This document shows positions 16,727-19,659 of a DNA stretch of 64,000 nucleotides, one piece after another (positions within the stretch are counted from its first letter, which is position 1; each line of letters begins with the position of its first letter). Source of the DNA: Escherichia coli (GTDB lineage Bacteria; Pseudomonadota; Gammaproteobacteria; Enterobacterales; Enterobacteriaceae); the NCBI RefSeq assembly GCF_003334385.1, contig NZ_QOWN01000014.1, one strand, 5' to 3'. Below the pieces are notes generated by a model that worked only from the letters and a program-made list of their open reading frames with translations, did not search any database and was not told where the DNA came from. The translations under genes and the position numbers were made by a program.

Positions 16727-18313
16727 TTATTGCCCGCGCGTTAACTCCCGCGCGGGTAATTGCTCCATCCATTGCATAAACACCTGCGGCGGCATCGCCT
16801 TCGCAAAAAACCATCCCTGGCAATAGCGCACGCCGCGTTTGCGCAGCCAGTTAACCTGCTCCTCAGTTTCGACGCCTTCAGCGATCGTTTTTAACCCCAG
16901 GCTGTGCGCCAGCTCGATGATGTGTTCCGCAATCAAATGACTGGTTTTGTGGGTGGTCAGCGTTTCAACAAACGATTTATCGATTTTCAAAATATCGACA
17001 TTCAATGATTTAAGGTTATGCAAGTTAGAGTAGCCAATACCAAAATCATCAATTGCCACTTCGTAACCAGCCTGGCGGAAAGCCAGAATAATCGGCGTCA
17101 TTTTTTCGACATCAAGAAATGCATGCTCAGTCACTTCAAATTTAATTTGCTGCGGACGCACCGCGTATTGCTCTGTTTTCTGATTGATTCGCGCTATCAA
17201 CCGTGACGTATGAAAATCGGAGGCCGACAGGTTAATAGAAACATAGCGATCGGCATGTGTTGCCAAGTACGCGCCCAGATCACGGAAGACATTATCAATA
17301 ACATAATCAGTTATCTGTTCTATCATCCCCTCCTTTTCTGCCAGCGGAATAAACTCTGCCGGATTCATTATTTGCCCCTGCTCACCAAGCCAACGTAACA
17401 ACGCTTCAGCGCCGATACATTTTTCTGTTTTGATATCGATTATTGGCTGGTAATAAAGACAAAGTTGATGTTTTTCGAGGGCGCGTTGCAATTTACGTTT
17501 GGGAGATAAATAGTTTTGTCGAATACGTAGCCAGAGTAATAGCAGAACAAGACTCCCCAAAATACCGGCGGGCAACGCAAAAATAAGATGATTATAAAAA
17601 TGGGTTATAAGACGTTGATATGAAGTCGCAACAATGGCTGCAATTGGGCGTTTTGTCGAATAAACTGTCGCATATAAATAGCCATTTCTTTGTACGGTTA
17701 AATCCTTCAAATGAATCAGCGGAGAAAACGTTGCTGCCGAGGCCTCTTTGCTTAACGAGAAAAAGGTTTTCGTCACCGTATCATACACACCCCATTGCAA
17801 TGTCGGATCATCAGACATCACTTCACTCCAGAAGAGAGGGTTGATAACTGCCACATAATTTCCCCGCTGCATATAGGTCATTTTATAGCCAGAGAAAAAA
17901 GGCGTATCGCGGTAATAATAGATAGAAACGTTAGGTTCACGCTTATAATCGGCCGGTGCAATCGTATAGCCGTTTACAGGCGCTATCAGCGATGAGCATA
18001 AAAAATGGTTATCACGGGCATAGATCAATTCATTAATATAAAGATAGCCACGAATAATATTCAACATTCGCTTTTGATGGGCTGGAGTGCAAACTTGCCC
18101 CTGATAGCGTTCAGCTGCATCGCTCACTAAATCTGCCTGGCGAATGACCAGCTCGGATTTATCCAGTGCCAGTTGAGCAAAGGTTCGGAGCTGATTATTC
18201 ACTTCTGATTTTGCCCAAAGGAAGGCAATCCATAGCGAAAGAATGATGGGAAAGAGAACTAAAAAGATAATGCCCGGCAACGCCAGTAATTGGTGTCGTG
18301 CACGATGACTCAT
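16727..18313 (-). CDS. pdeC: PdeC (YjcC), membrane-anchored EAL-domain c-di-GMP phosphodiesterase (528 aa)
   Basis: Two TM segments flanking a periplasmic domain, then an EAL domain (EALLRW); ATG at 18311-18313 gives 528 aa. Confidence 0.88.
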
Positions 18314-18618
18314 TGCTATCAATTTCCTGCCTGTTTATACCCGGCCATTGCAAGGTGAAAACCCTGGGTACCGACGTCTTTAGATAAATCTTACGGTATA
18401 AATAGCACTTTTGCCTGATTTGAAATTGATACCTTTCTAATCGTCACCTGGATGAAAATAATTCATTGATATTCAAAATTAATTTCCTACAGGAATGCAG
18501 AGGCGGCGGGAAGATATGCCCTTAATGCCACTGAAAAACCACATAATCTGTACAGCAATAAAAGTCACGGCCTAATATGGCTAACAAACAATCAATTGTG
18601 ATATAGTTCACAAAATTA

Positions 18619-18650
18619 ATGAAACAAACAGAGTGTTTCATTTTTGTGTT
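18619..18650 (+). terminator. Orphan terminator-like hairpin in the pdeC-yjcB intergenic region
   Basis: ATGAAACA-aacagag-TGTTTCAT stem-loop followed by TTTTTGTGTT; no plus-strand gene ends nearby. Confidence 0.35.
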
Positions 18651-18742
18651 CTGCAAGCCCCGCGATAGCCAGAGTGTACCACGCCTCCCGTGAACAACGC
18701 CGCGCTGTCCAGGGCATCGGCTCTTTTCAGAGGAATTGTTTG

Positions 18743-19024
18743 ATGGCTACCCTCACCACTGGCGTGGTTCTTCTTCGCTGGCAACTTCTTAGTGCCGTAA
18801 TGATGTTTCTGGCCAGCACACTCAACATCCGTTTTCGTCGGTCTGATTATGTCGGGCTTGCGGTGATCAGCAGCGGTCTGGGCGTTGTTTCCGCCTGTTG
18901 GTTCGCAATGGGGTTGCTTGGCATCACAATGGCGGACATCACCGCTATCTGGCACAACATCGAGTCGGTGATGATAGAAGAGATGAATCAGACACCGCCA
19001 CAATGGCCAATGATTTTGACCTGA
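18743..19024 (+). CDS. yjcB: YjcB, small inner membrane protein (93 aa)
   Basis: ATG at 18743 gives 93 aa (MATLTTGVVLL...); two hydrophobic segments; followed by a terminator hairpin. Confidence 0.75.
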   Translation: MATLTTGVVLLRWQLLSAVMMFLASTLNIRFRRSDYVGLAVISSGLGVVSACWFAMGLLGITMADITAIWHNIESVMIEEMNQTPPQWPMILT

Positions 19025-19029
19025 TACGT

Positions 19030-19060
19030 AGAAGCCTCCATAACGGAGGCTTCTTTTTTA
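19030..19060 (+). terminator. Intrinsic terminator downstream of yjcB
   Basis: GAAGCCTCC-ataac-GGAGGCTTC hairpin followed by TTTTTTAT. Confidence 0.75.
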
Positions 19061-19122
19061 TGGCTGGCAGATGCTTTAATCATCCACCTTAAAACAATAT
19101 AACCTATTGTTTTAATGACAAA

Positions 19123-19659
19123 TCAGAACGGAATGTCATCATCAAAGTCCATCGGCGGCTCGTTAGACGGCGCTGCCGGAGCGGACTGCTGCGGGCGAGA
19201 CTGCGCGCCGCCGCTGAACTGATTGCCACCCTGCGGCTGCTGAGGCTGACCCCAACCGCCCTGCGGCTGACCACCACCGATATTGCCACCTGCCGGAGCG
19301 CCACCACCCTGACGACCACCCAGCATCTGCATGGTGCCGCCAACGTTCACCACGACTTCTGTGGTGTAGCGATCCTGACCGGATTGATCGGTCCATTTAC
19401 GGGTACGCAGCTGACCTTCGATATAAACCTGAGAACCTTTACGCAGATATTCGCTGGCCACTTCTGCCAGTTTGCCGAACAGCACAACGCGGTGCCATTC
19501 AGTCTGTTCTTTCATCTCGCCGGTCGCTTTATCACGCCAGGATTCGGAAGTAGCCAGCGTAATGTTGGCAACTGCGCCACCATTTGGCATGTAGCGTACT
19601 TCCGGGTCCTGACCCAGATTACCAACGAGAATAACCTTGTTTACGCCTCTGCTGGCCAT
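19123..19659 (-). CDS. ssb: Single-stranded DNA-binding protein SSB (178 aa)
   Basis: [29 protein letters not shown]-terminus; Gly/Gln-rich linker; acidic C-terminal tail [11 protein letters not shown] at 19657-19659. Confidence 0.97.

Follow-up and report, generated by a model that had tools for sequence, protein, structure and literature searches.

Location and structure of the inverted repeat

In a 64,000-nucleotide stretch of Escherichia coli DNA (contig NZ_QOWN01000014.1 of assembly GCF_003334385.1; hereafter, the window, meaning the entire stretch), we analyzed an inverted repeat located in the spacer between the divergent genes pdeC and yjcB, which an earlier note had described as an orphan hairpin with the appearance of an intrinsic terminator. 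The repeat belongs to the start of the yjcB transcription unit and is not an orphan terminator, a conclusion to which we assign a probability of about 0.85-0.9; the half-site match suggests, tentatively (about 0.4), that a repressor of the IclR type, KdgR or PlaR, uses it as an operator close to the promoter. The locus is 100% identical to that of E. coli K-12 MG1655 in the opposite orientation, such that the MG1655 coordinate equals 4293784 minus the window coordinate, and the genes along the window are, in order, soxR, soxS, pdeC (on the minus strand, its ATG at 18313), yjcB (on the plus strand, its ATG at 18743), ssb and uvrA. The spacer extends from 18314 to 18742 between the divergent ATGs, in agreement with the arrangement and coordinates given previously, although its length is 429 bp and not 430 bp. 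Its description as AT-rich is accurate for about 18400-18650 (GC content 0.30-0.42) but not for the last ~90 nt before yjcB (18650-18742), where the GC content is 0.55-0.58.

The hairpin and its T-rich tail were found exactly where they had been reported, at 18619-18650: ATGAAACA (18619-18626), the loop aacagag, and TGTTTCAT (18634-18641), followed by TTTTGTGTT (18642-18650). The repeat can be extended to 9 bp, with arms AATGAAACA (18618-18626) and TGTTTCATT (18634-18642) enclosing the loop AACAGAG and preceding TTTGTGTT. The 9-bp stem includes two G-C pairs and has a predicted energy of -6.9 kcal/mol (z = -3.05) in a tight 29-nt fold; in a 46-nt context, the same hairpin is unremarkable, with z = -1.3 only. 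Perfect 9-bp inverted repeats with loops of 3-10 nt are present in ~20 places in the window, compared to 2.1 +/- 1.7 in shuffled sequences, so that the repeat in the yjcB leader is unusual but not unique, and the evidence that it is real comes from its conservation in 79 of 79 orthologous loci. A search with Rfam 15 covariance models yielded no match overlapping 18560-18715, even at E <= 10. The features relevant to the analysis are listed below in window coordinates.

18555-18569, plus strand: MarA motif gcaataaaagtcacg, a MEME-predicted site from chromatin immunoprecipitation sequencing (PMC5684230, Table 1)
18581-18586, plus strand: weak -35 element CTAACA, with a 15-nt spacer to TATAGT
18597-18612: perfect CRP core TGTGA-tatagt-TCACA, TGTGAtatagtTCACA, centred at -10.5 and covering the -10 element
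18599-18607, plus strand: extended -10 element TGaTATAGT (TGATATAGT), invariant across genera
18615-18742, plus strand: 5' untranslated leader of yjcB, 128 nt, with the Shine-Dalgarno (SD) sequence GAGGA at 18730-18734
18617-18626, plus strand: R1, outer left half-site tAATGAAACA (+3 to +12), corresponding to the 5' arm; 9/10 to the KdgR left half
18623-18643: 21-mer at the canonical KdgR spacing, AACAAACAGAGTGTTTCATTT (+9 to +29); 15/20 to the consensus
18627-18633, plus strand: loop AACAGAG, located where most genera have an intact inner left half-site, R2 (GAAACA)
18634-18643, plus strand: R3', right half-site TGTTTCATTT, corresponding to the 3' arm (inverted TGTTTCATT); 10/10 to the KdgR right half
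18644-18650, plus strand: TTGTGTT, the rest of the T-rich tail
18743-19024, plus strand: yjcB coding sequence, 93 amino acids, PF15940, an uncharacterized small membrane protein
19030-19060: the true yjcB/ssb intrinsic terminator, bidirectional, with a 10-bp G+C-rich stem and a T-run

Promoter of yjcB

The primary transcription start site (TSS) of yjcB was mapped to MG1655 4275169 on the minus strand (Cappable-seq GSE215300, analyzed in PMC12987492, Table 1), which is window position 18615; hence the 9-bp stem occupies nucleotides +4 to +28 of the yjcB mRNA. The hairpin that had been called an orphan begins 3 nt downstream of this TSS and adjoins a transcript start, not the end of a transcription unit. 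The promoter is reported to be active under antibiotic treatment only (PMC12987492). The extended -10 element fits the TSS at 18615, and the same combination, CTAACA-15-TATAGT, was independently predicted for yjcB by genomic SELEX (systematic evolution of ligands by exponential enrichment) with RpoD (Shimada 2014).

The perfect CRP core that covers the -10 element is the single occurrence of this sequence in the window, versus 0.02 expected. PhyloScan places yjcB among its top-ranked CRP predictions, deletion of crp raises the level of yjcB mRNA, and the crp-KO iModulon includes yjcB. The CRP site over the yjcB -10 element is a repressor site; in its location at -10.5 and in the increased expression in crp mutants, yjcB resembles other CRP-repressed promoters with a CRP site over core elements. 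CRP sites that overlap core promoter elements act as repressor sites at a minority of CRP targets.

The gene yjcB is also cited as a shared target of MarA and SoxS, the latter by ChIP-exo (PMC5684230). In most genera (loci L013-L086), the -35 region is overlain by a conserved block, (C)ACTGG[C/T]GAA[T/C]AAA(A), which precedes the CRP core by about 25-45 nt; the E. coli version is TGGCTAACAAAC at 18576-18596. This block is similar to one half of a marbox (AAYAAAY; in Citrobacter, GCAC-like bases precede it) and, judging by this resemblance, may be the actual MarA/SoxS/Rob site, ~15 nt downstream of the MEME-predicted motif at 18555-18569. The supplements of the SMRT-Cappable-seq study contained nothing for the yjcB locus, and those of the Salmonella MarA/SoxS/Rob/RamA studies contained no match for it.

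The pdeC/yjcB spacer is thus densely occupied by promoter elements of yjcB. The pdeC promoter was predicted as TTTTCA-16-TATAAA, which maps to 18361-18334 on the minus strand, ~20 nt upstream of the pdeC ATG, and binding of H-NS in the spacer is marked in the same table (Shimada 2014). In E. coli T16R (NZ_CP046716.1, 4229708-4231035), an IS1 element is inserted in the pdeC-yjcB spacer, so that the match is split in two and spans 1328 bp.

Conservation of the module in Enterobacteriaceae

The comparison included 79 orthologous yjcB loci, comprising 76 distinct sequences, from Escherichia, Salmonella, Citrobacter, Enterobacter, Klebsiella, Raoultella, Kosakonia, Phytobacter, Leclercia, Lelliottia and other Enterobacteriaceae. 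An 80th locus (L007; NZ_JAUFQN010000013.1, labelled Flavobacterium paronense) was excluded; its yjcB locus, including the whole leader, is 100% identical to that of E. coli K-12, and it almost certainly represents E. coli contamination of that assembly.

The sequence GTGATA[TCG]AGTTCACA was found in all 79 loci, and in every locus the repeat starts 8-10 nt after it. The promoter, the CRP site and the repeat precede yjcB in 79/79 loci; only 43 of these have pdeC as the divergent neighbour. Since the module is present in the other 36 loci without pdeC nearby, it belongs to yjcB, and the proposal that the hairpin is a part of the pdeC regulatory region is not borne out. We also considered whether the CRP site could act for pdeC and rejected this possibility: there is no acceptable minus-strand -10 element at class I/II distances, and the site is present where pdeC is not.

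Within the repeat, GTTTC in the 3' arm is invariant in 76/76 distinct sequences and CATT is nearly invariant. In E. coli strain EC2257, an A-to-T change in the 3' arm breaks the stem. Within Escherichia, variation affects 5 of 7 positions in the T-tail (18644-18650), 5 of 7 in the loop, 3 of 20 in the arms and 0 of 16 in the CRP/-10 core. Further downstream, two blocks of the leader, CGATAGCCAGAG (18663-18674) and GCGCTGTCC (18702-18710), are nearly invariant and can pair with each other (GATAGC/GCTGTC, plus GCC/GGC) around a variable insert, with next to no covariation (term -0.33); the segment that includes both blocks is missing from the ~60-nt leaders of the Enterobacter cloacae complex and has no Rfam match.

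Comparison with intrinsic terminators

The hairpin in the yjcB leader is very probably not an intrinsic terminator, and the canonical terminator architecture attributed to it is not supported. A generic terminator scan of the window made no call at the hairpin because the stem has only two G-C pairs and the threshold of the consensus scan was at least three. The comparison with the true terminator shared by yjcB and ssb is instructive: that stem has six G-C pairs and its fold (19030-19054) is predicted at -17.8 kcal/mol, versus two pairs and -6.9 kcal/mol for the leader hairpin. The published 3' ends flank the yjcB/ssb hairpin, namely 4274721 for yjcB, or window 19063 (TRS), and 4274757/8 for ssb, or window 19027/19026 (Adams 2021). 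The two structures are alike in that the E. coli leader stem-loop is also followed by a T-rich run; they differ in that the leader hairpin occupies +4 to +36 and not a transcript end. The T-run after the stem exists in Escherichia only and is missing in Salmonella, Citrobacter, Enterobacter and Klebsiella. In the ssb 3' untranslated region, a perfect 11-bp AT-rich inverted repeat, TTAAAACAATA-taacc-TATTGTTTTAA (19089-19115), is flanked by the ssb stop codon (19123-19125) and the shared terminator.

In the available parts of the Adams 2021 Term-seq and TRS tables, there is no RNA 3' end at MG1655 42751xx. It should be noted that this negative result is weak, because the promoter is largely silent under the respective conditions and RNAs of ~35 nt are easily lost. 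Together with the lack of any plus-strand unit ending at this position and with the unconserved T-tract, it argues against the suggestion that the hairpin marks the 3' end of an unannotated small transcript. The other suggestion made for the hairpin, an attenuator in the yjcB leader, was correct with respect to the leader location; attenuation itself is not supported, given the weak stem, the unconstrained T-tail, and the absence of a conserved leader peptide or a conserved competing structure in the yjcB leader.

Two candidate reading frames were rejected. An open reading frame (ORF) for 24 amino acids that starts at the ATG within the hairpin (MKQTECFIFVFCKPRDSQSVPRLP) consists only of ATG-TAA in Citrobacter and Enterobacter, has TTG, CTG or GTG in place of the ATG elsewhere, differs in length in each genus, lacks an SD sequence, and begins only 4 nt from the TSS. 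The frame of the minus-strand ORF at 18522-18656 is broken by indels in the spacer, and the conservation of this region is not three-periodic. Finally, GTTTCATG (in E. coli, GTTTGATG) recurs between the SD sequence and the yjcB start codon (18735-18745) in many loci. This motif has the sequence of the 3' arm, so that an alternative helix between AUGAAAC in the 5' arm of the hairpin and the ribosome-binding region is conceivable; little weight was given to it, since the partner is GTTTGATG in E. coli and is missing in Klebsiella and Enterobacter.

Similarity to KdgR and PlaR operators

The published consensus of the KdgR box is AAATGAAACAnTGTTTCATTT, and the box of PlaR/YiaJ, another regulator of the IclR family, is near-identical. 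Both arms of the yjcB repeat match KdgR half-sites, the outer left half at 9/10 and the right half at 10/10. The outer left half-site, R1, is conserved as ATG[A/T/C]AAC in all genera, with its E. coli core at +4 to +12. An inner left half-site R2, (A)GAAACA, abuts the upstream end of the 3' arm in Salmonella, Citrobacter, Enterobacter, Klebsiella and most other genera, and is degenerate in Escherichia and Kosakonia. The 21-mer with canonical spacing in E. coli is the best match to the consensus in the window, and its score of 15 of 20 (right half 10/10, left half 5/10) equals that of the kdgK operator. As positive controls, we scored validated MG1655 operators against the same consensus and obtained 15 for kdgK, 17 for kdgT, and 17 and 19 for kduI (of 20). 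At the same position, a score of at least 15 is reached by 50 of 76 orthologous sequences, and one of at least 17 by 16 of them; thus, in most genera, the box with a 1-nt centre scores 15-17 of 20, which is the range of validated operators. In ~235 kb of flanking DNA, the background amounts to one unrelated position that reaches 15. The box occupies the same place just downstream of the promoter in all genera, next to the start site, as expected of a repressor, and the variable positions of the repeat coincide with degenerate positions of the published consensus (Y before GTTTC).

Several observations weigh against this assignment. The good half-sites of E. coli, R1 and R3', are 7 nt apart, compared to 1 nt in the canonical arrangement, and the canonically spaced left half reaches only 5/10; in Kosakonia, the box scores 11/20. 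The universal conservation of R1, at a spacing of 9 or 10 nt from R3', is left unexplained by a canonical dimer site. Our literature search identified no paper that links yjcB to KdgR or PlaR and no report on KdgR at yjcB by chromatin immunoprecipitation (ChIP), genomic SELEX or electrophoretic mobility shift assay. The PlaR genomic SELEX paper and its supplement do not mention the pdeC/yjcB spacer. In the deletion-1 iModulon, which reflects the loss of kdgR and includes kdgK, kdgT, kduI and kduD, yjcB is not among the genes shown, with 6 genes unshown. Furthermore, yjcB differs from the KdgR regulon in having no known link to 2-keto-3-deoxygluconate metabolism and in being repressed by CRP, which usually activates the genes of this regulon.

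The validated KdgR box of kduI in MG1655, TAGTGAAACACTGTTTCGTTT (L089, 4138-4188), is preceded by GAAA(A/C)-type repeats with ~7-nt spacing (gtGAAAAtaGAAAACga). This layout recalls R1-R2 of yjcB, and accessory half-sites may be a feature of some KdgR operators, as far as can be judged from such resemblance.

Other regulators were compared with the repeat by means of their consensus sequences. OmpR (TG[A/T]AACA, resembling R1), CytR (octamer AATGCAAC), Cra, TyrR, CpxR, PhoP and the LysR-type pattern T-N11-A were provisionally set aside due to misfits in spacing or core; these candidates are also disfavoured because the right arm is never GTTGC.

Conservation as DNA sequence or as RNA stem

A conserved inverted repeat in a transcribed region can be maintained as a protein-binding site or as an RNA helix, and we compared the patterns of substitutions in the two arms. 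An alignment across all genera with MAFFT misregisters the 5' arm, and was replaced by a sequence-anchored register, in which R1 was placed by sequence similarity and not by pairing, and by a gap-free subset of 36 sequences. The earlier note had proposed, as a check, conservation of the stem with compensatory changes; the first part is confirmed by the presence of the repeat in all 79 loci, whereas the evidence of compensatory changes in pairing is weak. At its centre, the outer stem has A-U in 43, U.U in 28 and C.U in 5 of the 76 sequences, such that 33/76 have an uncompensated mismatch. In comparison with column shuffles, the outer helix shows 530 paired cells versus 513.9 +/- 3.1 and 18 double changes versus 11.8, and in the gap-free subset 80.8% of cells paired versus 78.7%, a value that was reached in 2 of 500 shuffles. 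However, the covariation score of the outer helix was reached by 61 of 500 shuffles and exceeded by a control slid by +1. The inner palindrome gives no signal (459 paired cells versus 459.2 in shuffles), with zero double changes in the gap-free 36-sequence alignment. RNAalifold applied to the whole leader did not recover the 5' hairpin, and the one structure it returned was a long-range helix that is conserved in sequence (covariation term -0.33).

The mismatches in the centre, the invariant GTTTC and the weak covariation suggest that the repeat is conserved mainly as a sequence, as would be the case for protein contacts. The small excess of pairing in the outer helix and some compensatory swaps point in the other direction, to a selected RNA stem. 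Changes that look compensatory (U-A, G-C) include TTGAGAC/GTTTCAA in Phytobacter, GTGAAATGG/CCGTTTCAC, and the Kosakonia stem extended by G-C pairs. These swaps, the variable length of the loop, and the combination of conserved arms with a free loop in Escherichia keep an RNA role in consideration.

Alternative explanations

If the similarity to KdgR boxes were secondary or ancestral, the repeat could function as a stem-loop at the 5' terminus of the mRNA, which would guard against 5'-end-dependent decay (RppH/RNase E), by analogy with ompA, or would modulate translation. The hairpin is the dominant predicted fold of the first 29-86 nt and, as in ompA-type stabilizing stem-loops, it lies within 3-5 nt of the 5' triphosphate of a long leader, with three unpaired nucleotides before the stem in E. 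coli and 3-5 in most genera if the same start site is assumed. The Escherichia pattern of arms kept and loop free, the loop length of 5-9 nt, which is tolerable for an RNA, and the small pairing excess over shuffles are compatible with such a role; in Kosakonia, the stem was strengthened by G-C pairs even though the KdgR-spaced box was lost. In contrast to ompA, however, the yjcB stem is weak, A-U rich and mismatched in many genera (the Enterobacter stem is only -3.6 kcal/mol, z = -1.2), the more stringent covariation measures are not significant, with the slid control scoring higher, and the 3' arm is invariant beyond what pairing alone demands. We consider this explanation rather unlikely. 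The T-run that follows the stem in Escherichia raises the related scenario of a promoter-proximal terminator or attenuator, in which the stem and UUUUUGUGUU would stop some polymerases at about +34 to +38, releasing a ~35-nt RNA and lowering the expression of yjcB. In E. coli and E. albertii, T occupies 6 of the 8 positions that follow the 9-bp stem, this run arose in the same lineage that lost the inner half-site, and the 3'-end maps come from conditions in which such short products would be hard to see. Against it stand the A-U pairs at the base of the already weak stem, the lack of a scan call, the variable tail, the absence of mapped 3' ends in the available tables, and the lack of a conserved leader peptide or anti-terminator, so that the scenario is very improbable.

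The remaining alternatives concern the DNA site. The repeat could be a decayed relic, that is, an ancestral operator that lost its inner half in Escherichia and has little or no present function in K-12, the hairpin being incidental. This would account for the inner left half that is at 5/10 in E. coli and was destroyed differently in E. albertii and in the cryptic clades, for a strain, EC2257, with a stem-breaking change, and for yjcB not being visible among the shown part of the genes derepressed upon kdgR deletion; moreover, conservation of the arms does not significantly exceed that of the remaining leader (3/20 vs 26/78 variable positions). Yet the arms are near-perfect half-sites across five Escherichia species or clades in which most of the intervening 7 nt and of the following 7 nt have changed, and Kosakonia independently retains R1 and R3' without R2; we consider this reading unlikely. 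A site for a different regulator with the split dyad ATGNAAC-N9/10-GTTTCAT as its target, or an element that regulates pdeC, is still less probable, indeed highly unlikely. The R1/R3' dyad is the most universally conserved arrangement, is kept even where the KdgR-spaced box is lost, and grows to an 11-bp perfect palindrome in Klebsiella and Raoultella; but we can name no known E. coli regulator with such spacing, the spacing itself is either 9 or 10 nt, and an element of pdeC would not be expected in the 36 loci that lack this gene nearby.

Proposed model

In the operator model, which we favour, the hairpin would be the RNA-level shadow of a DNA inverted repeat that serves as the control region of yjcB close to its promoter. 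A dimer of an IclR-type repressor (KdgR or the paralogous PlaR/YiaJ) would bind just downstream of the start, at +9 to +29, and would hinder promoter clearance or early elongation until a sugar-acid ligand frees it. The repressor would thus provide a third input, beside repression by CRP at the -10 element and activation by MarA/SoxS/Rob. In most genera, the binding site would comprise a canonical operator of R2 and R3' with a 1-nt centre plus the extra outer half R1; in Escherichia, the inner half would have decayed, leaving R1 and R3' 7 nt apart. Given this decay, the operator of E. coli is probably weakened or altered, and its palindromic nature entails a weak 9-bp stem-loop at the start of the yjcB mRNA. 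The yjcB repeat is a probable further member of a known operator class, with an odd arrangement of half-sites whose outer part is conserved everywhere, and its novelty is modest.

A variant of the model combines both levels: an ancestral KdgR-type operator could have been remodelled to a split dyad in Escherichia and, independently, in Kosakonia, with a surviving role in RNA, either in mRNA stability or in early termination via the new U-run. We regard this variant as improbable; if true, it would be a case of a transcription-factor operator co-opted as an RNA element.

Implications

These results resolve an apparent anomaly, a terminator with nothing to terminate: the element is within the first 30 nt of a known transcription unit. 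They also assemble the control region of yjcB, a widely conserved gene of a stress regulon, which consists of a MarA/SoxS site, a weak -35 element, an extended -10 element inside a CRP site, the start site, and an operator-like repeat. None of these results overturns the current understanding. If the assignment to KdgR/PlaR is correct, yjcB would have a metabolic third input, the KdgR regulon would gain a conserved member that was apparently missed by comparative studies, and the lineage-specific loss of the inner half-site would offer a small, tractable case of operator evolution. In that case, yjcB would be an unrecognized family-wide member of the KdgR/PlaR regulon, and a small membrane protein under the control of MarA, SoxS and CRP would be tied to the sensing of plant sugar acids.

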